This document shows positions 1-62,567 of a stretch of DNA of 64,000 bases, in pieces. The notes below the pieces were generated by a model. It did not search any database. It worked only from the letters and a program-made list of their open reading frames with translations, and was not told where the DNA came from. The number at the start of each line of letters is the position of its first letter. The first letter of the stretch is position 1. Origin of the DNA: Patescibacteria group bacterium (lineage in GTDB: Bacteria > Patescibacteriota > Microgenomatia > UBA8517); NCBI GenBank assembly GCA_022562395.1, contig JADFPI010000001.1, positions 1,456 to 65,455 of the forward strand. The letters are read 5' to 3'. The position numbers and the translations under genes were made by a program.

Positions 1-130
1 TTGATAATCCATATGGAGGATCGGCAAAGATCATATCGAAAGATTCCTTTCTAAATTCGGAAAGTAGTTTTAAAGAATTGCCTAAATAGAGTTTGAAGTT
101 TGGCTTTTCGTAGTAAGACTTAATCCTCAT
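1..130 (-). CDS. DNA methyltransferase, N-terminal fragment (gene runs off window start)
   Basis: Minus-strand ATG at 130-128. Translation MRIKSYYEKPNFKLYLGNSLKLLSEFRKESFDMIFADPPYGLS carries the DPPY motif IV of N6-adenine/N4-cytosine DNA MTases. Not in the ORF track because it is partial. Confidence 0.55.
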   Translation of the reverse strand, partial: MRIKSYYEKPNFKLYLGNSLKLLSEFRKESFDMIFADPPYGLS

Positions 131-331
131 GATCGGGTTTTATTTGGTATATTCATTTGACTATATGTAAGCCTTCTTGTCAAGGGTATTTAAATATATC
201 AAAGTGGGATGCATCCTGAAAGAAGAAATTCTGGCCGTATTATATCAGGTTTTGCGGCAGCAAAAAATGATCGGTGATTAATGATTTGTGGCTAGTCTGT
301 GGATTTTGGAGAGCAAAGGAGAAAAAGATTT

Positions 332-535
332 TTACTTCTTCTTACCCTGAGATTTTCGAATGGGCCAATCCACAATAGTAATTTTCCGTCCCCGAAGTTT
401 GACCACAACCTTTTGCCTCTCGCGCCAGCGGAGTTTGCGCATTATTTCAATCGGTAGGGTCAACCCCAAGCTTCGTCCGCCGCCCATTCTTGTTAGTTTC
501 CTTATATTTTTTTCGCTTAATTTCCTTCTGGCCAT
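332..535 (-). CDS. AbrB/MazE/SpoVT-family small DNA-binding protein (copy 1)
   Basis: 67 aa. RKLTRMGGGRSLGLTLPIEIMRKLRW...KVVVKLRGRKITI fits the swapped-hairpin AbrB/MazE pattern. Duplicated at 1773..1976. Confidence 0.6.
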   Translation of the reverse strand: MARRKLSEKNIRKLTRMGGGRSLGLTLPIEIMRKLRWRERQKVVVKLRGRKITIVDWPIRKSQGKKK

Positions 536-564
536 TTTAACTACTGAGTTAACTACTGAATTAA

Positions 565-584
565 CTACTGAATTAATTCAGTAG
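565..584. promoter_or_regulatory. Perfect 20-bp palindrome CTACTGAATTAATTCAGTAG in the 5' leader of the AbrB-like gene (candidate operator)
   Basis: Exact palindrome, flanked by partial AACTACTGA(A/G)TT tandem units at 539-574. Also found at 1982-2001 and 61545-61564. Confidence 0.6.
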
Positions 585-604
585 CAACTTTCTAATCTGT
601 CCAT

Positions 605-613
605 ATTTTAGCA
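605..613 (-). promoter_or_regulatory. Extended -10 promoter (rc TGCTAAAAT) for AbrB-like copy 1
   Basis: Plus strand reads attttagca; one of seven copies of the motif in the 1-5.4 kb islet. Confidence 0.5.
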
Positions 614-638
614 GAATTGGAGATTAGAGGTTATTTTT

Positions 639-965
639 CTAGGAATTCTGGGCCAAATGGGCCGCGACTTGTGCAACATTAATTGCGTTTACTCCCCAAC
701 GTATTAGATTCCCAATTCTAATAGCTTTTTCGTAAGAAAATGACAACCGGCTACCGGATGCCTTACTCAACGCATATGATCCAATTAACAATGCCGTAAC
801 TCCTGTACTAACTATGGCAGCTGTGTAAAATTCACCACCTTCAGCATATTTGTCTGCGGCAAAGCCTATTTCCTTAAAGCCCAGGCTTGAGTGGGCATAG
901 GTTGAAGTTACAACGTCCACTAAGTTAGCGGCAAAAAAGGAGGTCATTAACGCTTTCTCTTTCAT
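639..965 (-). CDS. hypothetical protein (108 aa)
   Basis: ORF with TGCTAAAAT -10 (979-987) about 14 nt upstream of the ATG and no SD. No recognisable family. Confidence 0.45.
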   Translation of the reverse strand: MKEKALMTSFFAANLVDVVTSTYAHSSLGFKEIGFAADKYAEGGEFYTAAIVSTGVTALLIGSYALSKASGSRLSFSYEKAIRIGNLIRWGVNAINVAQVAAHLAQNS

Positions 966-977
966 AATAATTGGTGG

Positions 978-1051
978 TATTTTAGCACGAAATTAAATTT
1001 TGTGATGTGGATATGAAGTCAAGAGTGTCGAGAGGTCGGACCTCTAAATTG
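978..1051 (-). repeat. Conserved ~74-bp promoter-proximal element (copy a), containing the TGCTAAAAT -10 and an AGAGGTC-G-GACCTCT hairpin
   Basis: About 90% identical to 5337..5411. The hairpin lies at 1031-1045. Confidence 0.7.
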
Positions 1052-1156
1052 TTTCAGATAGAAATAAAATATAATATGTGTTACTATATTAACATCACTA
1101 GGGAGAAACGAACGCTTGACTACGTGTCATGTCGCAACGCCTCCCACTTTTTTTGG

Positions 1157-1690
1157 TTAAATTTTAAGCTTCTCTCTCTCAAATTCTATAAAAGTTTTAT
1201 ATTTATGAAATCGCTTCAATAAAGATGACTCTGATTTTGAATTAGGAATTACGATACGAAGTAACTTTTTCTTTTTCTCTAAGTATTCGTGCAAACAATA
1301 AAAATCGCCGTCTCCTGATACTATTACTGCTCTATCATATTTCGGATACTGAATTGTTGCCGCATGTAAAACCAGCTCTGCGTCAACATTTCCTTTAGGT
1401 TTGCCCAAATTATCCTTGACTGTTGGTTTGAATACCAATTCATAACCGTAAGATTTTAAACGCCCGTAAAGCCTTCGGTTCTGTTTGATATAGCCTATGA
1501 AAAGGAAGGCTTTTTTGACACGAAATTTATCAGCTAAATATATCCTGAATTTTTTGAAATCTAGCTTCCACCCTCTATAAATTAACCTTTTGTTCCTATA
1601 AATATTCTTACTGGTGCCGAGGTTCAAATTTTGGCTATCGATGAAGGCATATATTGCTGGTCGTTTTTTGTTTTTGGAAAGTTTCGCCAT
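1157..1690 (-). CDS. NYN/LabA-like (PIN-related) domain protein, putative RNase
   Basis: IYAFIDSQNL, VDAELVLHAA and VIVSGDGDF motifs typical of NYN/LabA (DUF88). Leaderless with TGCTAAAAT -10 at 1700-1708. The 23-mer cattctggccgtattttagcacg is identical to the one before the protease gene at 5326-5348. Confidence 0.65.
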   Translation of the reverse strand: MAKLSKNKKRPAIYAFIDSQNLNLGTSKNIYRNKRLIYRGWKLDFKKFRIYLADKFRVKKAFLFIGYIKQNRRLYGRLKSYGYELVFKPTVKDNLGKPKGNVDAELVLHAATIQYPKYDRAVIVSGDGDFYCLHEYLEKKKKLLRIVIPNSKSESSLLKRFHKYKTFIEFEREKLKI

Positions 1691-1772
1691 TCTGGCCGTA
1701 TTTTAGCACGCTAAACACTTACGCGTAACGTGGCGAGCCACTTTCTTGAAGCTAAGCAGAGTAAAAAGATTT

Positions 1773-1976
1773 TTACTTCTTCTTGCCCTGAGATTTCCGA
1801 ACGGGCCAATCCACGATAGTAATTTTCTTCCCCCGAAGCCGGACTACCACCTTTTGCCTCTCGCGCCAGCGAAGTTTGCGCATAATTTCAATCGGTAGGG
1901 TTAAGCCGAGGCTTCGTCCGCCGCCCATTCTTGTTAGTTTCCTTATATTTTTTTCGCTTAATTTTCTTCTGGCCAT
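1773..1976 (-). CDS. AbrB/MazE/SpoVT-family small DNA-binding protein (copy 2)
   Basis: 67 aa, 63/67 identical to the 332..535 product. Confidence 0.6.
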   Translation of the reverse strand: MARRKLSEKNIRKLTRMGGGRSLGLTLPIEIMRKLRWRERQKVVVRLRGKKITIVDWPVRKSQGKKK

Positions 1977-1981
1977 TTTAA

Positions 1982-2001
1982 CTACTGAATTAATTCAGTA
2001 G
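1982..2001. promoter_or_regulatory. Palindrome CTACTGAATTAATTCAGTAG (copy 2 operator candidate)
   Basis: Exact palindrome in the leader of 1773..1976, followed by an extra TTAATTCAGTAG half-site. Confidence 0.6.
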
Positions 2002-2058
2002 TTAATTCAGTAGCAATTTTCTAATCTGCCTGTATTTTAGCACAGGCGAAGAATTTGG

Positions 2059-2604
2059 TTATTTTTTGATACTCACTTCAAGTGCGTCGGAGCCGACATC
2101 GTGTGTTGTGCTTTTATATTTCCCGCTTTCGCGCACATATTCCAGGAAGTCGCCCATGTCTTCTTTAAATATTTTTACATTATCCGCAACCACAACCGCT
2201 CCGTTTTGTAAGTTTCCTTCCGCCAGTTTTAAGTAATCCAAATAGTCTTCTTTCGCCGCATCAATGAACATAAAATCAAATGTAGCTGAAAGTGTTGGAA
2301 TCAGCTCTTTTGCGTAGCCTACCTTTATTTCAACTCTATCTTCAAACCCTGCTTTTTTAATATTCTCCCGGGCAATTTCTGCATTTTCCGGATCAACTTC
2401 AATAGTGACTATTTTTGTATTTGCACCAACCGCTTCAGCCATTAGTATTGCAGAATACCCCACATACGTCCCAATCTCTAAAATCCTTTTTGGCTTTTTG
2501 TCTTTAACCACATCCACAAGGACTTTACCTTTTTTAGGTCCGACAAGCATAATATGCCCCTCTGACTCAATTTTTTCTATTACTTTTTTTGCTGCGCTAC
2601 TCAT
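2059..2604 (-). CDS. class I SAM-dependent O-methyltransferase (caffeoyl-CoA OMT / YrrM-TrmR-like family)
   Basis: ILEIGTYVGYSAI is the SAM-binding motif I; FDFMFIDAAKEDY is typical of family-3 O-MTases. A TGCTAAAAT -10 at 2666-2674 leaves an about 60-nt leader. Confidence 0.75.
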   Translation of the reverse strand: MSSAAKKVIEKIESEGHIMLVGPKKGKVLVDVVKDKKPKRILEIGTYVGYSAILMAEAVGANTKIVTIEVDPENAEIARENIKKAGFEDRVEIKVGYAKELIPTLSATFDFMFIDAAKEDYLDYLKLAEGNLQNGAVVVADNVKIFKEDMGDFLEYVRESGKYKSTTHDVGSDALEVSIKK

Positions 2605-2700
2605 ATATTTATTACTTTCTACCGAGCTGGCAAGTTTTTCTTTGTCATACCCAAATTCTGCCCGTATTTTAGCACGGTTTTTAGGCTGAGGCGAAGGCGT

Positions 2701-2982
2701 TTAATTGAGATTTGTAGGTTTGTGTTTTAGCTCAGGAGGAAGAGAAACATTGTGGTGGTAAAGACCCATGAAAATTCTGTCGTAAACATCCGGGTCAATG
2801 CCACCAACCTCATCAACACAAGCTTCTATGTTCTTTTTCTGTTCTACTAAATACCTAGCCGCCTTTTCAACCTCTTCAGGAGAGTGTCTCCCGCGGAAAG
2901 CAATAACCCTCCAGGCTTTTTCACTGTATTGGGAGCCTTTTTTAGCAGTTTCAATCTGCTCTGGCGATAATCTTTCTCTCAT
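2701..2982 (-). CDS. hypothetical protein (93 aa)
   Basis: ORF with TGCTAAAAT -10 (2989-2997) 6 nt before the ATG, so leaderless. Confidence 0.45.
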   Translation of the reverse strand: MRERLSPEQIETAKKGSQYSEKAWRVIAFRGRHSPEEVEKAARYLVEQKKNIEACVDEVGGIDPDVYDRIFMGLYHHNVSLPPELKHKPTNLN

Positions 2983-3133
2983 ATGTATATTTTAGCACGG
3001 AAAGTAAAGCTCGACCGTGGACGAATCTGACAGAAAAATCGAGGGATAATTTACAAGGCAATTGGCCGATTTTTGTGTCTAACTAATATTTAGGCCTTTT
3101 AATGGCAATGATTGTTATCTGCATCTTTCTCTG

Positions 3134-3277
3134 TTACTCAACTGTGTACGGGGGCAACTTATATTTCCCCTTCTCCAGCGCTTTCAAATCCCTGTCGGAC
3201 AGATTAAAAGTTTCTTTCAAATATTTATCCTGCTTCTGCAAAGTAGTAGATTGAACTACTGGCTTTGAATCTTTCAT
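3134..3277 (-). CDS. possible small ORF (47 aa; MKDSKPVVQSTTLQKQDKYLKETFNLSDRDLKALEKGKYKLPPYTVE)
   Basis: Found by manual translation of the minus strand; below the ORF-track size cut-off. No clear SD or promoter. Confidence 0.2.
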   Translation of the reverse strand: MKDSKPVVQSTTLQKQDKYLKETFNLSDRDLKALEKGKYKLPPYTVE

Positions 3278-3350
3278 ATTTTTTAACTATTTAAAAAATC
3301 GGTTAGTTTTTACAGCTTTTCTCAGCAAGGCAAATGGCCGATTATTATGG

Positions 3351-3773
3351 CTAGTGTATCTTTCCGTTAGTGGGAAAGAGTCTTTCGAGTTTGCATTTCT
3401 CTCTATTGCTTAACCCCGGCATTGTTAAATGTATAAAAAATTGTTTCCAGTTTCTTCCGGTAGCTATCAATACTCGTTCGTCGTTTATTATTTTTATTCC
3501 TTCCCACTTATCTTCGTCTTTTGTTATTATCAGCAAATTTTCCCGCCCGTAAATGTTTCTGTAATCCAAACTATATCTTTCTTCTTCTCCGCGGTAGGAT
3601 TCTATTTCCGGTTCGTAAAGCGCGGTTCCGGAAATATCCACTCCTTTCACCTTTCTGTAACTTACAAATAGGACGTTAAAAGGAAAATCATTAAGTTCAG
3701 GCCTATCCTCGATATTTAAATTGTGGGGTATAAACGCGAAACGGTTTTTATATATAAATGTTTCAGCTATCAT
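3351..3773 (-). CDS. hypothetical protein (140 aa) under SAM-I riboswitch control
   Basis: ORF with a strong SD (AGGGAGGTGA) immediately after the riboswitch terminator. No recognisable family. Confidence 0.55.
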   Translation of the reverse strand: MIAETFIYKNRFAFIPHNLNIEDRPELNDFPFNVLFVSYRKVKGVDISGTALYEPEIESYRGEEERYSLDYRNIYGRENLLIITKDEDKWEGIKIINDERVLIATGRNWKQFFIHLTMPGLSNREKCKLERLFPTNGKIH

Positions 3774-3798
3774 TTATATCACCTCCCTTCTAAGTCAC

Positions 3799-3824
3799 GA
3801 AAAAACCTCTCCCGAAAGAGAGGT
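3799..3824 (-). terminator. Intrinsic terminator of the SAM-I riboswitch (GACCUCUC-UUUCGG-GAGAGG + U6)
   Basis: 6-bp GC-rich stem with a 6-nt loop, followed by TTTTTT on the minus strand. Confidence 0.8.
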
Positions 3825-3968
3825 CAAATCTTTGCCAACAAAAAATCGGCCAAATCTTTCCCTTCCGGGCTGGACTTGGCACCGTTTTCCTTCGACTTTA
3901 CTCAGGACCGGTTGCCGGGTGGGTCATTGAGCCAGTACTCTCGCCACCACTCTTGATTTATTGCCTTA
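3799..3968 (-). promoter_or_regulatory. SAM-I (S-box) riboswitch: aptamer (about 3847-3962) plus terminator expression platform
   Basis: Minus-strand RNA matches the S-box consensus. It has AUCAAGAG, then GGUGGCGAGAG-UACUGGCUC (P2 with k-turn-like GA), AAUGACCCACCCGGCAACC, GGUGCCAAGUCC (P3), CCCGGAAGGG (P4 GGAA tetraloop) and GAAAGAUUUGG (P1 3' strand). It is preceded by a TGGTATAAT promoter and followed by a terminator and SD. No ORF lies inside. Confidence 0.85.
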
Positions 3969-3974
3969 CGACTA

Positions 3975-3983
3975 CATTATACC
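3975..3983 (-). promoter_or_regulatory. Extended -10 (rc TGGTATAAT) driving the SAM-I riboswitch transcript
   Basis: Plus strand reads attatacca. The TSS is predicted about 7 nt downstream. Confidence 0.55.
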
Positions 3984-4002
3984 ACACCTTTTTGAGGCTG
4001 AA

Positions 4003-4048
4003 TTTGCCAGAAGTCCTTCGGCAGGCTCAGGATTAAAATCCCTCGGCA
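4003..4048. repeat. Two 21-bp direct repeats (tccttcggcaggctcaggatt / tccctcggcacactcaggatt) separated by aaaa
   Basis: 18/21 identical. They lie between the protease stop and the riboswitch promoter. Confidence 0.6.
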
Positions 4049-4051
4049 CAC

Positions 4052-5329
4052 TCAGGATTGGTCTGCATAGAACCATTCCCAGGAAGGTTCTTCTACCTCC
4101 TTAATCTTGCTTCGATTCATTTTATAAACCCCATCCTCTAAAACTGTCTGCCAGGTACCTTCATAGTAATGATAATCTACTTCTTCGTCATTCCAGTTTT
4201 TTGTTGAAAATTTAACAAAAGCAGTATCGTCGGTATTTTCGTGGGGCTCGGAAATATAAATCTCAACGTCAAGAATATCGGTGAACCTATTTGTCCACTC
4301 CTCAAAATTCGTTTTTTCAAGGTATTTACTAGATAAAAGCGCAAATCCATCCTCCATCCTCCGTGCCTTTAAATAAGTATAAAAAGCTCTAACCGCCTCT
4401 TCCGGGGAAACCGACGGATCTACTTCGATTTTAGTGATTTCGCTGTCGGTAAATTCAGCCGATAGCCCTTCTATCCAATTGGCAGGAATAAATAAAGATA
4501 AACCCGCCAGACCAAGGGTATTCACTCCTACAACTTTACCGCATATATCCACCAGAGGGCCCCCACTCATTCCTTCAACAAGATTTATATCTGTTTGGAT
4601 ATAAGCGGTGCCGGCCGATTTTTGCTCTCTGAACGAGACGTACTCACCTTTTTGGATAGTTGCTTCACCGGCTAAATCTGTTCCCAAGGCGTAACCGGCA
4701 GCAATAAGCTTTTCTCTGTCGTAAAAAACAAGTGGGTCCATCATCTCAAGGACTAAATCCGGATAGTTTTCTTTCGTAAATAAAATGGCAAGGTCATAAT
4801 ATTGGGTACCGGTAATTGTTTCCGGTGTAGCGAAGCTGCCGTCTGAAAAGATTATTTTCGGACTCGGTTCGCCGGCAATGACGTGGAAGTTGGTAAGAAC
4901 CTGATTCTCGGATATAAAAAAGCCCGACCCTTCGGAGTAGCCGCCGACTATCCTTACTACCGAATCTTTAAGTTTTTGGTCCACCCCGTATCCGCACAAG
5001 AATTTAGAGTAGTGTCCGTAGTTTGTTTGGATGTAGTCAACAATGACAAAGAGCGATGCAAAGATATAGATAACCAGTGCCGTTATAAATATCGACTTCA
5101 GAAAGTTTTTCAAACTTCTAAAAGGAAAGGTTATAGTTTCAAAAAATATTTTTATTAATGAAATTAGGGTTTTTATAAAAAACTTAATAATGTAGTAAGT
5201 TGAGTAAGTGATTGTTTTTACTGGGAAAAGATATAGGGGAAAAAGAAGCCGTTTGACGTAATTTTTGAATCTTAAATAAAGCTCGGAGATTCTTTTCTTA
5301 ACGTTTCGCTTAATCCTACCCACCTTCAT
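4052..5329 (-). CDS. membrane-anchored trypsin-like serine protease (S1C/HtrA-like)
   Basis: N-terminal TM segment. Catalytic triad contexts are TNFHVI (His), YDLAIL (Asp) and GMSGGPLV (Ser). Leaderless with TGCTAAAAT at 5339-5347. Confidence 0.8.
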   Translation of the reverse strand: MKVGRIKRNVKKRISELYLRFKNYVKRLLFPLYLFPVKTITYSTYYIIKFFIKTLISLIKIFFETITFPFRSLKNFLKSIFITALVIYIFASLFVIVDYIQTNYGHYSKFLCGYGVDQKLKDSVVRIVGGYSEGSGFFISENQVLTNFHVIAGEPSPKIIFSDGSFATPETITGTQYYDLAILFTKENYPDLVLEMMDPLVFYDREKLIAAGYALGTDLAGEATIQKGEYVSFREQKSAGTAYIQTDINLVEGMSGGPLVDICGKVVGVNTLGLAGLSLFIPANWIEGLSAEFTDSEITKIEVDPSVSPEEAVRAFYTYLKARRMEDGFALLSSKYLEKTNFEEWTNRFTDILDVEIYISEPHENTDDTAFVKFSTKNWNDEEVDYHYYEGTWQTVLEDGVYKMNRSKIKEVEEPSWEWFYADQS

Positions 5330-5336
5330 TCTGGCC

Positions 5337-5411
5337 GTATTTTAGCACGAAATTAGATTTTGTAATGTGGAGATGAAGTCAAGAGTGTCAAGAGGTCGGA
5401 CCTCTACATTG
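5337..5411 (-). repeat. Conserved ~74-bp promoter-proximal element (copy b)
   Basis: About 90% identical to 978..1051. The hairpin agaggtcggacctct lies at 5391-5405. Confidence 0.7.
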
Positions 5412-5433
5412 CCTCACTCTTTCTGTAAGACCG

Positions 5434-5462
5434 TTGACAAAAAGTAAGGAGAATGTTATAAG
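5434..5462 (+). promoter_or_regulatory. sigma70-like promoter TTGACA-N17-TATAAG for vapBC
   Basis: -35 at 5434-5439 and -10 at 5457-5462, 6 nt before the vapB ATG, so leaderless. Confidence 0.6.
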
Positions 5463-5468
5463 TAAGGC

Positions 5469-5726
5469 ATGGCAACGATAATAACCGTTACCAGTAAAGG
5501 ACAAGTGACGCTTCCTAAGAAAATTCGAGAGACCCTTGGTATTAAAAAGGGAGACCGTATTATTGCCAGGACCAAGGGTAAAAAAATAACCCTCGAGCCC
5601 GCAGGACGTGGCATTCTTGATTTTGCTGGAAAACTTGGAAAGCTTAAGGTGCCGAAAGGAAAAACAGTAGATGACCTTATACATGAGGCAACCACAGAAG
5701 TCCTTAGTAAAAATGCTCTCGGGTAA
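5469..5726 (+). CDS. vapB: VapB-like antitoxin (AbrB/SpoVT swapped-hairpin domain)
   Basis: ITVTSKGQVTLPKKIRETLGIKKGDRI motif. Overlaps the downstream PIN gene by 14 nt. Confidence 0.75.
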   Translation: MATIITVTSKGQVTLPKKIRETLGIKKGDRIIARTKGKKITLEPAGRGILDFAGKLGKLKVPKGKTVDDLIHEATTEVLSKNALG

Positions 5727-6120
5727 GATATTTGTCGACACGAACATCTTCATATACCTTCTCTATGAAGTAGATGATAAAAAACATTCTGCGTGTATCG
5801 ATTTACTTAAAAAGGCCAGGGAAGGTGAAGTAAGATTATGGACAACTGAATGGGTTATCGCTGAGCTTATATGGTTTTTACATAGAAGAAAGAAGGTTTG
5901 GAGTGAAATTGAGCTAATAGTAAATAGTATGTTGACTACTAAAGGATTGGAGATAAGAAACAAGAAGTGGCTTTTAGAGATATTGGTACCGTGCAAGAAG
6001 GTAACAGACTTTTTTGATTCTGTAAACATGTCGATTTTATTATCCGAAGGGGTGAATAGAGGCTATTCTTATGACAGGGGGCTTGATAGGTGGAGAAGCT
6101 TCAAAAGGATGGAACCGTAA
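5713..6120 (+). CDS. vapC: VapC toxin (PIN-domain ribonuclease)
   Basis: MLSGKIFVDTNIFIY holds the first PIN Asp; WVIAEL holds the Glu. Start chosen at the internal ATG 5713, since track ORF 5671 overlaps vapB. Confidence 0.75.
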   Translation: MLSGKIFVDTNIFIYLLYEVDDKKHSACIDLLKKAREGEVRLWTTEWVIAELIWFLHRRKKVWSEIELIVNSMLTTKGLEIRNKKWLLEILVPCKKVTDFFDSVNMSILLSEGVNRGYSYDRGLDRWRSFKRMEP

Positions 6121-6284: not shown

Positions 6285-6293
6285 TGATATAAT
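6285..6293 (+). promoter_or_regulatory. Extended -10 TGATATAAT for the pepE-like gene (leaderless, ATG 6 nt downstream)
   Basis: Sequence tgatataat at 6285-6293; ATG at 6300. Confidence 0.55.
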
Positions 6294-6299
6294 TCAGAC

Positions 6300-6929
6300 A
6301 TGAAACAGCTATTTCTTACTTCCGGTGTCCATGCGGTAGCACACGATATTTCTAAAAAAGTCGACCTTTCTAAAGGCAACAAGCTTGTATTCATTGATAC
6401 CGCTGCAGAGGGTGAAAAGGGAGACAAGCAGTGGCTTAAAAACGACAGGAAAGCACTTGTAGATGCTGGGTTTGAAGTTGCGGACTACTCAATCACAGGT
6501 AAATCAAAGGACGAACTAGAAACTTACCTTCCGAAATTCGACTATATTTATCTCTCGGGCGGTAATACCTCTTACCTTTTACAGCAATCACAAAAGTCGG
6601 GGTTTATTCCTGTAATAAAAGACCTGGTTCTCAAAAAAGGAAAAACATACATTGGCACCAGTGCAGGCTCAATAATTGCCGGCCCGGTGCTACCTGTTTA
6701 TTTACTGGATGACAGCGAGGATATAAAACTAGATGACCCGAAAGGGTATGGTTTTGTTAATTTTACAATTTTGCCGCACTGGGGTTCTGAAGACTTCAAA
6801 AAGATGTATTTAGGGAAAAGATTAGAAACCGTATACAAGGAAGACCAAGTACCGTTACTACTTCTGACGGACAACCAATACGTTCATGTCCGAAACGACC
6901 AAGTGAAGATTGTTGATGTAAACGGTTGA
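6300..6929 (+). CDS. pepE: peptidase S51 (dipeptidase E-like)
   Basis: YIGTSAGS nucleophile-Ser motif and overall PepE-like layout. Confidence 0.65.
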   Translation: MKQLFLTSGVHAVAHDISKKVDLSKGNKLVFIDTAAEGEKGDKQWLKNDRKALVDAGFEVADYSITGKSKDELETYLPKFDYIYLSGGNTSYLLQQSQKSGFIPVIKDLVLKKGKTYIGTSAGSIIAGPVLPVYLLDDSEDIKLDDPKGYGFVNFTILPHWGSEDFKKMYLGKRLETVYKEDQVPLLLLTDNQYVHVRNDQVKIVDVNG

Positions 6930-7071: not shown

Positions 7072-7077
7072 TATAAT
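7072..7077 (+). promoter_or_regulatory. -10 TATAAT for alaS (leaderless; ATG at 7087)
   Basis: gggtataat immediately before the CDS. The track's TTG start at 7078 overlaps the -10 and is rejected. Confidence 0.5.
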
Positions 7078-7086
7078 TTGCGCAGG

Positions 7087-8850
7087 ATGAAGGCCAAAAA
7101 TTTGAAGAAAAAATACCTTGATTTTTTTAAAAGTCGGGGGCACGCAGTAATTCCTTCGGCCTCTTTGATTCCAGAGAATGATCCTTCTGTTTTGTTCATT
7201 TCGGCAGGGATGCACCCGTTGGTTCCTTATCTTTTGGGCGAGCCGCACCCGGAAGGCAAAAGGCTGACTAATTTTCAGAGGTGTCTAAGAACCGGTGATA
7301 TTGATGAAGTTGGAGACGCTGCACATCATACCTTTTTCGAGATGCTGGGCAATTGGTCTTTGGGTGATTACTGGAAAAAAGAGGCGATTGAGTGGTCTTA
7401 TGAATTTTTGACCAAAGAACTTTCTTTGAGTTCAAAGAGGCTTTGGATTACCTGTTTTGCAGGAGATAAAGATGCGCCTCGCGACACCGAATCAGCCGAG
7501 GTTTGGAAAAGTTTGGGAGTTCCTGACAAAAGAATATTTTTTTATGGGAAGGAGGAGAATTGGTGGGGGCCGGCAGGAGAAACCGGGCCTTGTGGGCCCG
7601 ACACGGAGATGTTTTATGACACCACCGGTAGTCCACATGCAGGAAATTGTAAGCCCGGCGACAAGTGTGGTCGCTTTTTCGAAATTTGGAACGATGTTTT
7701 CATGCAATACAACAAGACTAAAGAAGGAAAGTATGAACCCCTTGAACAGAAAAATGTCGATACCGGAATGGGAGTTGATCGAACGACTGCGGTTTTATCA
7801 GGGCTCGACGACGATTATAAAGTCACCGACCTCTGGGGAAATATTCTTAAGACAATCGAGGAGTCAACGAAGTCAAAATACAAAGGTAACGAGAAAGCTC
7901 ATCGAGTAATTGCCGACCATGTTCGAGCGGCCACTTTTGTGATTCAAGACGGCGTGGTGCCTTCAAACAAAGAGCGCGGTTATGTTTTAAGAAGACTAAT
8001 AAGAAGGGCGATTCGATACGGACGGATTTTGGGTGTTGATAAACCATTTCTGACAGAAATTTCAAAGTCAGTTATTAAATCTTACCAAGACCAATATCCG
8101 GAACTTGAGGAAAAATCAGGCCAAATAAAAGAGGTGTTGGATGACGAGGAAAATAAGTTTTTCCACACCCTTGCCAAGGGTTTGCGCGAAATCGAAAAAC
8201 TGGGAGAATTGGACGGGAAAAAGGCATTTTTTCTTTACGAAACATTTGGATTTCCCTTGGAGCTTACCGAAGAGATTGCCAGGGACAAGGGGCAAAAAAT
8301 TGATATAGAGGAGTTTGAGGGGCAGTTTGAAAAACATAAAAAGAAATCTCGTAGTGCTTCTGCCGGGATGTTTAAAGGGGGGCTTGCCGATCATTCAAAG
8401 GAGGTAATTAGGCTTCATACTGCAACCCACCTTCTTCATTGGGCCCTGCGGGAAGTCTTAGGCAAAAGTGTTCACCAAGAAGGGAGTAATATTACCAAAG
8501 AGAGGTTAAGATTTGATTTTTCGCACCAACAAAAATTAACTGAAAGTGAAATTAAAAAGGTCGAGAAATTAATTAACGAAAAAATAAAAGAAGATTTACC
8601 CGTTCACAAAAGCGTTGAGGAAAAAGAAAAGGCGTTAAAGTCCGGCGCGCTGGCAAATTTTGCCGAAACTTATCCGGAAAAAGTTTCAGTTTACACCATA
8701 GGGAAAGATTTAAAGAAGAACTGGGTTAGCAAGGAGGTGTGCGGCGGGCCGCACGTAAAGACTACTTCCGAAATTGGGCGTGTTAGAATTAAAAAACAAG
8801 AAAAAATAGGAACGGACCTGATAAGAATATACGCGATTATTGAGAGCTAA
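7087..8850 (+). CDS. alaS: alanyl-tRNA synthetase, short form (catalytic + tRNA-binding + editing core; no C-Ala domain)
   Basis: N-terminal FFKSRGHAVIPSASLIPENDPSVLFISAGMHP class-II AlaRS motifs. Editing motifs HTATHLLHWAL and CGGPHV. The product is only about 588 aa. Confidence 0.85.
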   Translation: MKAKNLKKKYLDFFKSRGHAVIPSASLIPENDPSVLFISAGMHPLVPYLLGEPHPEGKRLTNFQRCLRTGDIDEVGDAAHHTFFEMLGNWSLGDYWKKEAIEWSYEFLTKELSLSSKRLWITCFAGDKDAPRDTESAEVWKSLGVPDKRIFFYGKEENWWGPAGETGPCGPDTEMFYDTTGSPHAGNCKPGDKCGRFFEIWNDVFMQYNKTKEGKYEPLEQKNVDTGMGVDRTTAVLSGLDDDYKVTDLWGNILKTIEESTKSKYKGNEKAHRVIADHVRAATFVIQDGVVPSNKERGYVLRRLIRRAIRYGRILGVDKPFLTEISKSVIKSYQDQYPELEEKSGQIKEVLDDEENKFFHTLAKGLREIEKLGELDGKKAFFLYETFGFPLELTEEIARDKGQKIDIEEFEGQFEKHKKKSRSASAGMFKGGLADHSKEVIRLHTATHLLHWALREVLGKSVHQEGSNITKERLRFDFSHQQKLTESEIKKVEKLINEKIKEDLPVHKSVEEKEKALKSGALANFAETYPEKVSVYTIGKDLKKNWVSKEVCGGPHVKTTSEIGRVRIKKQEKIGTDLIRIYAIIES

Positions 8851-24593: not shown

Positions 24594-24634
24594 TTAGTTT
24601 GTGATTAGGTATTGTTAAGTAATATAATAAAAAT

Positions 24635-25837
<1,203 letters not shown>

Positions 25838-58612: not shown

Positions 58613-60421
58613 TTAGATTTTCCCCAGGTTCTTTGCGAGGGCGTTTGTTTCCTTGAGAAGAGTTTCAACTTCGGCGATGCCCTTTTCCCAGAAGTCTTTT
58701 TTTGAAATATCGATGCCAAGCTTTTTGAAACTGTCCTTAGGGGATTCGGACAGCCCCACCGAAAGGAATTCTTTTACAGCACCTATAAATTTGGAATCTT
58801 TTTTGACTTCGGCTTGCATGGTTTTTGAGATTAGTAGGCCTCCGGCATAGGAGTAAACGTAGAAGAAAAAGCGAATATGTTGCCAGTGTACCCACCAGTT
58901 TTCAGAGCCAGGGGATTGCAGCACGTAAGGGCCCATGTACGAATCCATATGTTTCTGAAACGTTTTGCCGATTTCTTCCTTGCTTAGATAACCCCTCTCT
59001 CGAAAAGTTTTATGCAACTCGGTTTCAAAGTTATAAAGGGCGATCTGCCTAAAGATTGTTTTTACGTCTTCGTCGAGTTTATTGACCATTAAAGCAAGCC
59101 TGGTTTCCTTGTCAGCCCTTTTTAACAATTCTTGAAATACAAAGTCTTCCATAAATGTACTCGCAACTTCTGCCGTTGACCTGGGTGTGCCAAAATTGAG
59201 CGCGTTTTGTTTTCTGCGAATGAGCTCAAAGTTTATTCCGTGTCCGAGTTCGTGTGCAAAAGTTAGAACGTCTTTGAGCATGTTTGTCCAATTGAGAAGT
59301 AAAAAGGTCGGCTGGGACAAGAGTGTGTAGGCTGTAAAAGCTCCACTACGCTTTCCACTTCTAGGGTAAACGTCGACTCTGCCCTCATTTACAAAGTCTG
59401 AGAAGAGATTGCTGAAATCTTTATCTAGGTTTTTGTATACGCTTTCAATTATTGAAACGGCGTCTTTATAAGAATATTTCGCTTCGATTTTGCCGTATTC
59501 AACGAGCCTTTCGTGATACTCCAACTTTTTAACTCCTAGAAGTTTTGCTTTGAGCTTGTAATGATGCATTGCTACGTCAAAGTGTGAAGATACAGAGCTC
59601 ACTAGTGTGTCGACAGTGTCGGTGTCGACGTCGTCTGAAATGTGGCGATCAGTATCTGCTCTTTCGTAATTACGCAATCCGTCGTCTATTTTTTTGTTTT
59701 GCAGTACGGCGTTTAACTCATGCTCTGCTGTATCGGTATGACTTGCTAAAATGTCGTTGAATGCATTAGCGGCAGAATTCCGAACTCTTTTGTTCCTAGA
59801 ACCCATTAACCCCAGGATGTCAGAGAAACTCTTCTTGTCCTTTCTCCTTTTTTCATTTAATATCATCCTTTCTTCCTTAGACAAAAATCCAGAAGTCATT
59901 TTTGTCCAGTTGTCGTGAGCCACGGGGGATTTTAGATTCATTATTTTTTCTTCTGGCTCGGTGAGTAGGTGTTTCGCCTGCAAAAACAGTCTCTCCAAAA
60001 AGTGTTTATAGGGCATTAGTGGTTTGTAGTTTAAAAACTGGCTTTGTTGACGGGGATCGATCTTCGCAAGCCTTAACTCGAAAAATTGAATTTGATTTTG
60101 CATTTTTTTAACAAATTCTATTGATTTATTGTATTTGGCTTTGAGTTTTGGAGCGTTTTGGTCTTGTGAGGTTTTTAGCGAGTAATAGTAGTGTTCGCCG
60201 CCTTTGGGATCAAAATTTTTTCTCCAATCTTCGTATTCGCTTAGCGCTGCAAGTAATACTTTTGGTTTTTTAAGGTAATCGTCTCTGTTCTTCCACTTCT
60301 TTACAAACTGGCTAGTTTTCTTCTCGGTTATCTTTCTGAGTTTTTGGATTTCTGTGTCATTCTCTGATTTGAATAAAAGAGTTAGGTCCCAGGAGGTTCT
60401 ATTAGCTTTTAGTTTTGCCAT
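58613..60421 (-). CDS. pepF: oligoendopeptidase F (M3B family)
   Basis: HELGHGINFE HExxH zinc site and an overall M3B layout. Confidence 0.85.
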   Translation of the reverse strand: MAKLKANRTSWDLTLLFKSENDTEIQKLRKITEKKTSQFVKKWKNRDDYLKKPKVLLAALSEYEDWRKNFDPKGGEHYYYSLKTSQDQNAPKLKAKYNKSIEFVKKMQNQIQFFELRLAKIDPRQQSQFLNYKPLMPYKHFLERLFLQAKHLLTEPEEKIMNLKSPVAHDNWTKMTSGFLSKEERMILNEKRRKDKKSFSDILGLMGSRNKRVRNSAANAFNDILASHTDTAEHELNAVLQNKKIDDGLRNYERADTDRHISDDVDTDTVDTLVSSVSSHFDVAMHHYKLKAKLLGVKKLEYHERLVEYGKIEAKYSYKDAVSIIESVYKNLDKDFSNLFSDFVNEGRVDVYPRSGKRSGAFTAYTLLSQPTFLLLNWTNMLKDVLTFAHELGHGINFELIRRKQNALNFGTPRSTAEVASTFMEDFVFQELLKRADKETRLALMVNKLDEDVKTIFRQIALYNFETELHKTFRERGYLSKEEIGKTFQKHMDSYMGPYVLQSPGSENWWVHWQHIRFFFYVYSYAGGLLISKTMQAEVKKDSKFIGAVKEFLSVGLSESPKDSFKKLGIDISKKDFWEKGIAEVETLLKETNALAKNLGKI

Positions 60422-60708
60422 GTAGGGATTTTAACATAAAAAGAGCCCGGTAGAAGACATCTCTCCAGACAGTTATAAGTTTTCATAGATCTATTTACAT
60501 TCAACTCTACACGCGCGATCGCCTACAAATAGTTGAGGCTATTTGAGAGAAAGAAATTATTTTTATTGGGAGAACCGTATTTATCAATTTCTTGAAGTGC
60601 AACCTTTTCAGCTTTTTAAGCAACCTCTTTATATCTTTTAACTTCAAATATTGTCGTGAATGTCCGAAAGTACTGTAACCTTCATGCTAAAGTCTATTAT
60701 GCCGAAAC

Positions 60709-61396: not shown

Positions 61397-61467
61397 CGGG
61401 GAGTAGTTTAGTGGTAGAATGTGCGCATGGGGTGCGTGCGGCCCGAGTTCGATTCTCGGCTCCCCGA
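61397..61467 (+). tRNA. tRNA-Pro (anticodon GGG)
   Basis: Manual fold gives acceptor CGGGGAG/CTCCCCG, anticodon loop AT-GGG-GT with U33 and G37, T-arm CCGAG-TTCGATT-CTCGG, discriminator A and no encoded CCA. The D-stem is weak (GU pairs). Confidence 0.65.
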
Positions 61468-61489: not shown

Positions 61490-61773
61490 AGTTGTTGACT
61501 TAGGGTTATCTTTGATGACAATAATGATTTCACTTTGTAAATTTGCTACTGAATTAATTCAGTAGTTAAGACAACTGCATCAAGCCGAATTCCCCCCGCC
61601 AGCAACTGCGTAGCTTTGAGCGGGGGGCGGGTGAGGCGTAGTCTCCGATAAAATCGGGGTAGCAATGCGGCGTCTAGAAGCCTCTCGGCAAAGCCGAGTT
61701 AATCCTTCAGGATATTGAAGAAGTCCCGAGCCTCTGTGCTCGGGGAGGCTTCACTTCAGTAGTTAAAATGGCC
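61490..61773 (+). repeat. Degenerate third AbrB-like cassette on the plus strand: promoter, palindrome (61545-61564), a ~190-bp hairpin-rich insert (61565-61754), then ttcagtagttaaaATGGCCAGCCCCGACTAA (5-codon remnant)
   Basis: Matches the 5' leader and first codons of copies 1 and 2. The ttcagtagttaa on each side of the insert looks like a 12-bp duplication. Confidence 0.6.
61565..61754. mobile_element. ~190-bp hairpin-rich insertion (MITE-like or structured ncRNA candidate)
   Basis: Stems CCCCCCGC/GCGGGGGG, CCGAT-aaa-ATCGG, CTCGGC-aaa-GCCGAG, CTTCA-ggatat-TGAAG and CCCGAGC-ctctgt-GCTCGGG. Flanked by a ttcagtagttaa direct repeat. No ORF. Confidence 0.4.
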
Positions 61774-61781
61774 AGCCCCGA

Positions 61782-62423
61782 CTAAATTATCTTGTGCTCA
61801 ACTAAGAAATCTCTGACAATCTCAAAAATTTTCTTATGACCTTCAGTGTTTGGATGTATACCGTCAAAAAGTAATGTGTCTACTTTTGCTTGAGACGTTT
61901 TCCTTAAATTAACATAGTCTAAATTTTTCTCATTACAGACAGATTTAATTATATTATTAAACTCAGAGATTGATGTGTTTTTGTAAGATAATTCTTTGTC
62001 CCATGGCACGGGATTAACCCTTTTTTCATCGACACGAGTTAATCCCAGAAAAATTATTACATTTGTAAACTTTTTTGCAAGTGAAACAAGTTTAATTAGA
62101 TTTTTTTGAAATTCATTCGGTGTAAATCTTGCATTACCGCCGGGGTATTTTACAGCAGAATCGTTTGTTCCTAGTTGGAAGATAATTATCAGCTTTCCTC
62201 CCTCCCAGGCCCGAGGTTTGGTCTCAACCTCAAAGTGCTCTAATAATGTTTCAGCTGTCTCGCCGGCTACACCAAGGTTATAAACCGTAAAAGTTTCCTT
62301 AAGCCACCAGTTTTGCCTGGTATACTTTTTGTCTACAAAGTTTCTTAATTTATTGACCCATCCGCTTTCTTTGTCCCAGCGACCGTAAGCAACACTGTCT
62401 CCAAAAACCAGGATATTCGCCAT
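61782..62423 (-). CDS. SGNH/GDSL-family hydrolase
   Basis: VFGDS (block I Ser), GTND and DGIHPN (block V Asp-His). Confidence 0.75.
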   Translation of the reverse strand: MANILVFGDSVAYGRWDKESGWVNKLRNFVDKKYTRQNWWLKETFTVYNLGVAGETAETLLEHFEVETKPRAWEGGKLIIIFQLGTNDSAVKYPGGNARFTPNEFQKNLIKLVSLAKKFTNVIIFLGLTRVDEKRVNPVPWDKELSYKNTSISEFNNIIKSVCNEKNLDYVNLRKTSQAKVDTLLFDGIHPNTEGHKKIFEIVRDFLVEHKII

Positions 62424-62567
62424 GAAGAAATTTTACCACAACCTTGAGCGAAATTGAGGTTATTAAAAGCTTCAAGAATACCCCGATTCAGTCGGGGATG
62501 AATTGAAGCTGTAACAATATCTTCCTTTACGACGAAGACGTACAGCTTTGCTGTAGAGGGGAAGATG

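Follow-up and report, generated by a model that had tools for sequence, protein, structure and literature searches.

Promoters of the extended -10 class, which are read by sigma-70/sigma-A, carry a 'TGn' element, known in Gram-positive bacteria as the '-16 region' (TRTG), and work without a good -35 hexamer. In integrons, attC is a palindromic site at the 3' end. Among leaderless genes, group C of GeneMarkS-2 has its Pribnow box about 6-8 nucleotides (nt) 5' of the start in leaderless first genes of operons, and has been described mainly for Actinobacteria and Deinococcus-Thermus (Lomsadze et al. 2018, PMC6028130). Putative mobile promoters are upstream regions of 50-100 nt that stand, with at least 80% identity, before non-homologous genes (Matus-Garcia, Nijveen & van Passel 2012, PMC3488235). 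Here we describe a repeated promoter-like element in a 64-kb stretch of DNA from a bacterium of the Patescibacteria (GenBank assembly GCA_022562395.1, contig JADFPI010000001.1, positions 1,456 to 65,455 of the forward strand), hereafter called the window. Within its first 6,120 nt, a row of minus-strand genes, which we call the islet, carries copies of an extended -10 motif, TGCTAAAAT, fused to a conserved segment that leads towards the start codon. On balance, we think it probable that these copies belong to a portable extended -10, near-leaderless promoter family that has spread among single-gene accessory cassettes of related Patescibacteria.

A preliminary description of the same DNA had listed seven minus-strand copies of TGCTAAAAT, at 605, 979, 1700, 2034, 2666, 2989 and 5339, and all seven positions proved exact. 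The motif is found eight times in the window against 1.19 expected, a count reached in none of 100 shuffles; the eighth match (59744, plus strand) lies within a gene. The 23-mer CGTGCTAAAATACGGCCAGAATG, said to be shared by the NYN-domain and protease genes, is indeed identical at 1688-1710 and 5327-5349, ATG included (repeat family D2). The extended -10 character was likewise borne out. TG stands one base 5' of the -10 hexamer at all seven sites and in TGATATAAT, the variant carried by an additional islet unit beyond those seven (227-249, TGATATAATACGGCCAGAAT, upstream of a DNA methyltransferase (MTase) fragment). Five sites read CGTG, fitting the RTG of the '-16 region', and a weak -35 hexamer (4/6 match, 16-nt spacing) is present at only two of the seven.

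Similarity among the islet promoters goes beyond the -10 box into the downstream bases, since they have TGC and ACGG(C/G)CAGA(AT) in common. With up to three mismatches allowed, the 17-mer TAAAATACGGCCAGAAT gives seven matches against 0.18 expected, six of them within 228-5344. In the window, ACGGSCAGA occurs between 228 and 5344 only, and the longer module TGCTAAAAT-ACGG(C/G)C-AGA-ATG is confined to 1-5.4 kb. The relaxed pattern TGNTANAAT has 23 window sites against 11.2 expected; the base that follows TG is C at 7/7 islet sites and T or G in seven promoter-like TGNTAAAAT sites elsewhere. Copies within one genome are alike, with GGCC in the window and GGGC in the related locus L008 (related loci are cited by L numbers). 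The seven sites are not all independent, because two pairs sit in duplications: the AbrB-like units form a 231-nt duplication with 91% identity (D1), and the promoters of the protease gene and of a 108-amino-acid (aa) open reading frame (ORF) lie within an 85-nt repeat with 89% identity (D3).

The family recurs before unrelated genes in other genomes. A scan of 185,579 species genomes with an exact 20-mer gave three matches, of which one is relevant (L006, a Patescibacteria metagenome-assembled genome (MAG)); the exact 20-mer is therefore rare and the family degenerate, and the exact 20-mer was rejected as a widespread element. In L006, TAAAAT-A(C)GG(C/G)CAG(N)-ATG/GTG stands at three genes, which encode a protease homologue, a small toxin-like protein and an EVE-domain protein. 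A metagenome scan with the 21-mer TGNTAAAATACGGSCAGAATG returned ten contigs, and the ATG opens a long ORF in seven of them; the genes behind it encode the protease, an Eco57I-type restriction-modification (R-M) protein (932 aa), an SNF2/PLD helicase-nuclease (1065 aa), a DUF5680 protein and a toxin-like protein. The non-homologous accessory or defence genes behind the module in relatives comprise R-M, SNF2/PLD helicase, DUF3800, TspO, RadC and EVE genes. Loci L008, L011 and L016 share a partly syntenic islet (86-aa gene, protease, 67-aa gene, 93-aa-ORF homologue, DUF3800, TspO, NYN) in which at least eight different genes have TAAAAT-ACGG... with spacers of 6, 8 or 9 nt. Seven viral-contig matches to the 17-mer are probably due to chance, given that a rough estimate puts the chance number at about that level and that most are not at a plausible gene start.

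Among 25 non-redundant instances of the 9-nt class, 13 match our scan patterns and 12 are bystanders beyond the reach of those patterns. Locus L037, which was fetched through its protease and not through the motif, has the module ahead of both protease and RadC; L038, fetched in the same way, has a degenerate module ahead of the same two genes. In the Woesebacteria-related L028, also fetched via the protease, a variant with an 8-nt spacer (outside the 25) precedes an EcoRI-type methylase/GmrSD pair. Orthologues of the protease that are more distantly related carry different promoters or a Shine-Dalgarno site. The promoter of the protease is conserved in the orthologues of L008, L037 and L012, though the flanks have diverged; in a comparison of the window with L008, identity is 89% in the module, against 57% in the 56 nt upstream and 61% over the first 87 coding bases. 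In L008 (533-595, minus strand), a full promoter module is immediately followed by what is left of a RadC N-terminus, 21 codons in all (MMKIKDFPKVTPSQEKLFDKI*); in L037 and L038, RadC itself has a module of this kind as its driver.

Longer upstream modules are reused as well. The 85-nt repeat, made up of the hairpin AGAGGTCCGACCTCT and the promoter, stands ahead of the protease gene and the 108-aa ORF, and in L003, a strain variant of the window, it is fused to the AbrB-like leader. A module of about 50 nt with TGATATAAT (...cgcaaaaccTGATATAATACGGCCAGAAT) is identical at 44 of 50 positions between the window (227-280), where it belongs to the MTase leader, and L037, where it precedes RadC; homology between the two stops exactly after CAGAAT. 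The sequence tttagcttcaagcacgaaaaggTGSTAAAAT is found ahead of the protease in L006 and L012 and ahead of the 67-aa gene in L008, which has two further modules, each used two or three times. At least five window contexts have just the 21-23-mer in common and are flanked by unrelated sequence.

Comparison of strains placed four homology breakpoints inside the module or at its edge. The NYN gene of L003 differs by one mismatch in 534 nt and has a different upstream cassette, with identity from ...CAGAATG on. The same locus is without the whole 108-aa cassette, the endpoints of which lie in two TGCTAAAATA repeats. L008 and L011 agree at 99.9% as far as the 5' border of a TAAAAT box and diverge beyond it. 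These spots fall within about 20 nt: after TGCTAAAATAC, after CAGAAT, between GG(C/G) and ATG, and before TAAAAT. This pattern suggests that the repeated promoters act as recombination linkers.

According to the preliminary description, the -10 box lies 6-14 nt before the start codon in all seven units. This held for four of them, with 6 nt for the 93-aa ORF, 9 nt for both the NYN and the protease gene and 13 nt for the 108-aa ORF, and because the box is so near the ATG their mRNAs are predicted to be leaderless or nearly so. It failed for the O-methyltransferase gene (61 nt) and the two AbrB-like genes (57 and 69 nt), which are leadered. Nor does near-start placement distinguish the islet, as had been supposed. 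A -10 box is found 6 or 9 nt 5' of the ATG at 9-10 window genes outside the motif family, including AlaRS, EF-Tu and VapB (comparators in Table 1), and a tRNA (61397) and a SAM riboswitch (3962) also lie behind such boxes, at the expected distance. TAWAAT outside the islet has a spacer peak at 6 and 9 in the window (6/19 at 6-9), and in other Patescibacteria loci (104 genes) 17 of 32 are at spacers 5-9. Leaderless -10 placement is therefore no marker of the islet, being seen across the window. Housekeeping leaderless promoters have unrelated spacers (TCAGAC, CCCTAC, TTCTTC, AAAAAT, CCTAAAGAA), and a GGAG-type Shine-Dalgarno site stands ahead of several operon-internal genes. In a literature search we found no paper on leaderless expression or group C architecture in Patescibacteria.

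The same placement touches on gene calling. The longest AlaRS ORF starts at TTG 7078, and this start is doubtful because TATAAT-9-ATG points to ATG 7087 (MKAKNLKKKYLDFF...) as the probable true start. Tools tuned to Shine-Dalgarno sites may mis-call gene starts in this lineage.

The element would be a sigma-70/sigma-A extended -10 promoter, (C)GTGnTAAAAT, in no need of a -35 box and fused to a conserved discriminator/start segment, ACGG(C/G)C-A-GA, followed by ATG. Transcription start sites (TSSs) lie about 7 nt past the -10 box, with a pyrimidine at -1 and a purine at +1 (PMC12641261). In every class member, position 7 past the hexamer is an A that follows C (ACGGSC-A), and since both rules fit, this A is the predicted TSS. 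With a 6-nt spacer it would coincide with the A of ATG and give a truly leaderless mRNA (93-aa ORF, ACGGCC-ATG in L008, the housekeeping 6-nt promoters); with 9 nt, transcription would start 3 nt before the ATG and give a 5'-AGAAUG mRNA; the 13-nt spacer would leave a 7-nt leader. Leadered units retain the same predicted start. Initiation so near the start codon would leave no space for a Shine-Dalgarno site, and it is likely that first genes of operons in this genome are generally expressed through this placement and several operon-internal genes through Shine-Dalgarno sites. The many islet copies would be explained by the make-up of the islet, a mosaic in which every single-gene cassette brings a promoter of its own. 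Their near-identity would reflect the spread of promoter modules, about 25-85 nt long, from one gene to another unrelated one, both inside a genome and across related genomes. Cassettes would be exchanged or lost by recombination inside the shared modules, and each recombinant would therefore retain a working promoter.

Several points weigh against this explanation. Leaders are present in three of the seven units and in the eighth, and the 9-nt spacer predicts a 3-nt leader and not a strictly leaderless mRNA. The view of the source genome is the 64-kb window, and among the 185,579 reference species the exact 20-mer has a single Patescibacteria match. The breakpoints were read from metagenomes assembled from short reads, in which repeats can cause mis-joins; on the other hand, independent assemblies show the same arrangements, and the window lacks the flanks seen in L003 and L037. 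Promoter activity, TSS position, leaderless translation and the mechanism of recombination are all inferred from sequence. In addition, conservation of the discriminator/start segment is unusually strong for a core promoter, which hints at an extra function, and propagation alone leaves unexplained why AGAAT is retained where no ATG follows.

These last points bear on the first alternative, namely that ACGG(C/G)CAGAAT, lying over the TSS, binds a trans-acting factor (a repressor or an RNA polymerase-associated protein) that switches the cassettes jointly, so that the likeness of the copies would come from selection for common control. We think this unlikely. Positions 10-20 of the 21-mer are invariant at 80-100% in the 25 instances, far above usual discriminators, although part of this invariance is ascertainment because 13 of the 25 match the scan patterns. 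The segment is kept in leadered units where the ATG has been replaced (CAGAATT, CAGATTA), it goes with accessory and defence genes in several genomes, and it is absent from the housekeeping leaderless promoters of the window. However, it lacks the dyad or direct-repeat symmetry usual in operators, and likeness within each genome (GGCC here, GGGC in L008) is expected from propagation or gene conversion. There is also no linked candidate regulator, the AbrB-like genes having a different palindrome of their own that is not found at other promoters. The AbrB-like protein was itself considered as a common regulator and rejected, as the CTACTGAATTAA repeats are confined to the two AbrB leaders and a remnant near the tRNA at 61.5 kb. 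Co-regulation of the islet genes, as proposed in the preliminary description, is possible, and would rest on the conserved ACGGSCAGAAT downstream of the -10 box.

Other identities for the motif were tried and set aside. A LexA box (CTGT-N8-ACAG) was seen by eye in one copy only (2029-2044) and is not family-wide; a recognition site for an R-M system does not fit, since GGCC/CGGCCA of the window copies becomes GGGC in relatives; and miniature inverted-repeat elements or insertion-sequence ends were dismissed because all copies are oriented with their genes and have no inverted partners. To our knowledge, no consensus of the SigH GAAT -10, sigma-54, sigma-28, extracytoplasmic-function or T7-like single-subunit type fits in spacing or sequence. 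A literature search with the motif string returned unrelated primers only.

That the copies are leftovers of recent segmental duplications in one islet, and ordinary promoters otherwise, is decidedly improbable. The two duplicated pairs described above agree with such an origin, but the at least five window contexts with unrelated flanks around the 21-23-mer do not, and the module also stands ahead of non-homologous genes in other genomes and outlasts the divergence of the adjoining coding sequence, so that the cross-genome data disfavour this explanation. Least probable of all is a site-specific cassette system in which a dedicated recombinase uses the module as its core site (like integron attC/attI or Xer/pdif) and the promoter function is secondary: the four breakpoints, the strain-variable single-gene cassettes and the apparent defence hotspot beside the conserved protease in relatives would suit it, but the proteins scanned in window 1-6120 and a 6.3-kb extension included no member of an integrase or recombinase family, the module is non-palindromic (no dyad symmetry) and lies at the 5' end of genes, and the crossover has no fixed nucleotide, its four positions in about 20 nt fitting homologous or microhomology recombination with selection for a retained promoter.

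A portable promoter family thus remains our preferred explanation, and it can be taken one step further, although we regard the extension as doubtful. In Microgenomates-type Patescibacteria, the fixed promoter and start adaptor (TGnTAAAAT-ACGGSC-AGA-ATG) would then serve accessory and defence genes alike as a universal plug. Genes recombined into it would be expressed at once as (near-)leaderless mRNA, and the adaptors would serve as crossover points that shuffle cassettes in a hotspot beside the conserved membrane protease, an integrase-free, promoter-delimited analogue of the integron, with possibly one regulator reading ACGGSCAGA.

The proteins of the window are identical to NCBI entries MCH77298xx/MCH77299xx (locus tags IID21_000xx). 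On the minus strand, 1-6120 carries the DNA MTase N-terminus, the two AbrB/MazE-like genes, the 108-aa ORF, the NYN, O-methyltransferase and 93-aa genes, ORFs of 47 and 140 aa and the protease gene; a vapBC pair follows on the plus strand, and housekeeping genes (AlaRS, rpoBC, EF-G, EF-Tu, ribosomal proteins) begin at 6300. Table 1 lists the units and the comparator promoters.

Table 1. Promoter modules and genes of the islet, followed by comparator promoters from the rest of the window
Feature	Position	Strand	Remarks
Protease promoter/start module CGTGCTAAAATACGGCCAGAATG	5327..5349	-	-10 box 5344-5339, 9-nt spacer, ATG 5329; 100% identical to 1688-1710
425-aa membrane-anchored trypsin-like (Trypsin_2) protease, conserved islet backbone gene	4052..5329	-	Pfam
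85-nt repeat copy 2: hairpin AGAGGTCCGACCTCT + promoter, to TGCTAAAATAC	5332..5416	-	89% identical to 972-1056
93-aa ORF promoter CGTGCTAAAAT-ATACAT-ATG	2980..2999	-	6-nt spacer; predicted fully leaderless mRNA
93-aa hypothetical protein, no family match	2701..2982	-	86-aa homologue in syntenic L008 islet
O-methyltransferase module CGTGCTAAAATACGGGCAGAATT	2654..2676	-	ATT at ATG position; gene start 61 nt downstream (leadered)
181-aa O-methyltransferase (Methyltransf_3)	2059..2604	-	Family scan
AbrB-like copy 2 module TGTGCTAAAATACAGGCAGATTA	2022..2044	-	57-nt leader
Palindrome + 12-nt repeats (CTACTGAATTAA) between promoter and AbrB-like start	1978..2013	.	Repeat search
67-aa AbrB/MazE-like protein copy 2	1773..1976	-	ORF list
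NYN gene module CGTGCTAAAATACGGCCAGAATG	1688..1710	-	9-nt spacer, ATG 1690
177-aa NYN-domain protein, predicted RNase	1157..1690	-	PF01936, E=3.6e-14
108-aa ORF module CGTGCTAAAAT-ACCACCAATTATT-ATG	967..989	-	13-nt spacer; inside 85-nt repeat 972-1056
108-aa hypothetical protein	639..965	-	Entire cassette absent from strain variant L003
AbrB-like copy 1 module TCTGCTAAAATATGGACAGATTA	593..615	-	69-nt leader with palindrome + repeats at 541-584
67-aa AbrB/MazE-like protein copy 1	332..535	-	ORF list, family scan
Eighth module CCTGATATAATACGGCCAGAATT	227..249	-	109 nt upstream of DNA MTase start (129)
Type II N6/N4 DNA MTase N-terminus	1..129	-	Gene runs beyond window edge; PF01555 in L001
pepE-like 209-aa gene (ATG 6300), comparator	6285..6302	+	TGATATAAT-TCAGAC-ATG, 6-nt spacer
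AlaRS (ATG 7087), comparator	7072..7089	+	TATAAT-TTGCGCAGG-ATG, 9-nt spacer
Comparator	12568		TGTTAAAAT-9-ATG
EF-Tu (ATG 24635), comparator	24623..24637	+	TATAAT-AAAAAT-ATG, 6-nt spacer
602-aa gene (60421), comparator	60419..60436	-	TGTTAAAAT-CCCTAC-ATG, 6-nt spacer
213-aa gene (62423), comparator	62421..62438	-	TGGTAAAAT-TTCTTC-ATG, 6-nt spacer
VapB (5469), comparator	5434..5471	+	TTGACA-17-TATAAG-6-ATG; leaderless-type, without ACGGSCAGA segment
Comparator	60746		TTGACA-17-TATAAT-9-ATG
Comparator	56647		TATGAT-9-ATG

The view of this region as an accessory islet agrees with its gene content, which differs among near-identical strains (strain-variant contigs), and with locus L001, the same contig from another sample, which runs past position 1 of the window into MTase and defence-like genes. 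That 6.3-kb extension holds a type II MTase (PF01555) and its 171-aa partner, a DUF4145 protein resembling PD-T7-4 and a weak PycTM(-like) match. In the window itself, defence-type content consists only of VapBC, the NYN RNase, the AbrB-like genes and the MTase fragment, and PADLOC matches are at domain level only. The suggestion that the region was horizontally acquired gained no support: the GC content at third codon positions is 0.407 in the islet genes against 0.400 in the rest of the window (p=0.84), and overall GC is likewise no different, so that base composition offers no hint of a foreign origin. Moreover, blastn of 1-6120 found no match among 50,697 phage or 72,556 plasmid records, and a phage or plasmid origin was dismissed for want of DNA matches. 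Apart from the terminator of the riboswitch, we found no intrinsic minus-strand terminators between cassettes, and read-through between units is therefore possible. Exact-protein look-ups for further strain variants (protease, O-methyltransferase, AbrB copy 2) gave no match.

The protease gene does not belong with the accessory genes, as had been assumed, since it is widely conserved, with 894 homologues, mostly in Patescibacteria (WWE3, Woesebacteria, Woykebacteria). It adjoins defence genes in every relative inspected (L028, L031, L034, L038), where its neighbours are an EcoRI-type MTase with GmrSD; DrmE, NERD, helicase and MZB genes (DISARM-like); LexA with type I/IIG R-M; and RadC with type I R-M. 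From this gene order, the Trypsin_2 protease may mark a conserved defence-island hotspot in Patescibacteria.

Regarding the AbrB-like genes, copy 1, the sister of copy 2, matches PF04014 with E=9e-5, below the gathering cut-off. The palindrome and repeats at 1978-2013 form a putative auto-operator. Both genes (533-539 and 1974-1980, minus strand) open with TAAAATGGCCAGAAG, so that the start codon lies inside a mimic of the promoter core (TAAAAT..GGCCAGA); this may have arisen by chance or be left over from recombination at the motif. A third AbrB-leader palindrome (CTACTGAATTAATTCAGTAG) with an AbrB start (TTCAGTAGTTAAAATGGCCAG), the gene itself missing, was found at 61546-61775 (plus strand), past the tRNA at 61397-61467. 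A GC-rich insert of 195 nt (61566-61760) splits the palindrome from the AbrB start; it is predicted to fold strongly on both strands (z -3.9 and -4.35) and has no Rfam match. The element at 61.5 kb looks like an islet-type cassette remnant beside a tRNA, interrupted by a structured element.

We also identified a SAM riboswitch (RF00162, 48.9 bits) at 3849-3962 on the minus strand, with its own TGGTATAAT promoter at 3976-3984 and a terminator at 3804-3825, both on the same strand. Behind it lies the 140-aa ORF (3351-3773, minus strand), preceded by a strong Shine-Dalgarno site. Its product falls into none of the Pfam, NCBIfam or PADLOC families, and from the riboswitch and the intrinsic terminator the gene appears to be SAM-regulated. 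In L039, a leader similar to that of the SAM riboswitch is present ahead of a 65-aa ORF adjoining the protease. The element AATCGGCCAATTGCCTTG (minus-strand reading) stands at 3054-3081 and 3326-3353, behind the stops of the 47-aa and 140-aa ORFs. It is also present in other genomes (L003, L039), and in L039 it lies directly 5' of the protease promoter. A hairpin, AGAGGTCC(G/A)ACCTCT, is found between cassettes in the window (1031-1045 and 5391-5405), L006 (568-582), L012 (6602-6616) and L013 (403-417); a T-run follows it in L006, as in a classic terminator, and none follows in the window.

In conclusion, leaderless promoters and mobile promoters are kinds already known, and what is found here is probably a lineage-typical leaderless extended -10 promoter within a conserved portable module that accessory cassettes share across related Patescibacteria. 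Patescibacteria (the candidate phyla radiation, CPR) are almost wholly uncultured, and very little is known about how transcription and translation are initiated in them. Our analysis offers sequence-level evidence that a -10 box placed upon the start codon is routine for first genes in this lineage, which bears on the calling of gene starts in CPR MAGs, as the AlaRS example illustrates. The same kind of evidence points to reuse of a specific promoter/start module before unrelated accessory and defence genes in several genomes, and to strain-level gene gain and loss at that module. Should the module turn out to serve as a regulatory box or as a recombination adaptor, it would provide a handle for finding the variable gene pool of these reduced genomes and predicting its expression, and potentially a ready-made portable promoter for the CPR genetic tools under development.

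The islet promoters can be set beside the systems outlined at the beginning. As in group C, the -10 box in the window stands 6 or 9 nt before ATG or GTG without a Shine-Dalgarno site, several operon-internal genes do have one, and TAWAAT shows a positional peak at spacers 6-9 across the window and related loci. Unlike group C, the window shows a second mode at 9 nt, from which a leader of 3 nt is predicted, and one sub-family keeps its discriminator sequence fixed. The islet core (C)GTGnTAAAAT, with a 5/6 match to TATAAT and an absent or weak -35, resembles the extended -10 class, but the 9-11 nt past the hexamer (ACGGSCAGAAT) are conserved almost like the hexamer itself, a trait that the generic class does not have. 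Mobile promoters are matched within the genome by the 85-nt repeat before the protease and the 108-aa ORF (89% identity), and between genomes by the TGATATAAT module (44/50) shared by RadC and the MTase leader. In contrast to mobile promoters, several islet copies have only 21-26 nt in common, under the length criterion of PMC3488235, differing upstream modules converge on one core/start sequence, and the modules coincide with cassette breakpoints. Finally, integron cassettes and Xer/pdif modules are like the islet in being arrays of single genes that vary between strains and are joined at a short conserved sequence; here, however, neither an integrase nor an Xer-type site was found, the crossover points are scattered, and the conserved islet sequence is a promoter at the 5' end of the genes.

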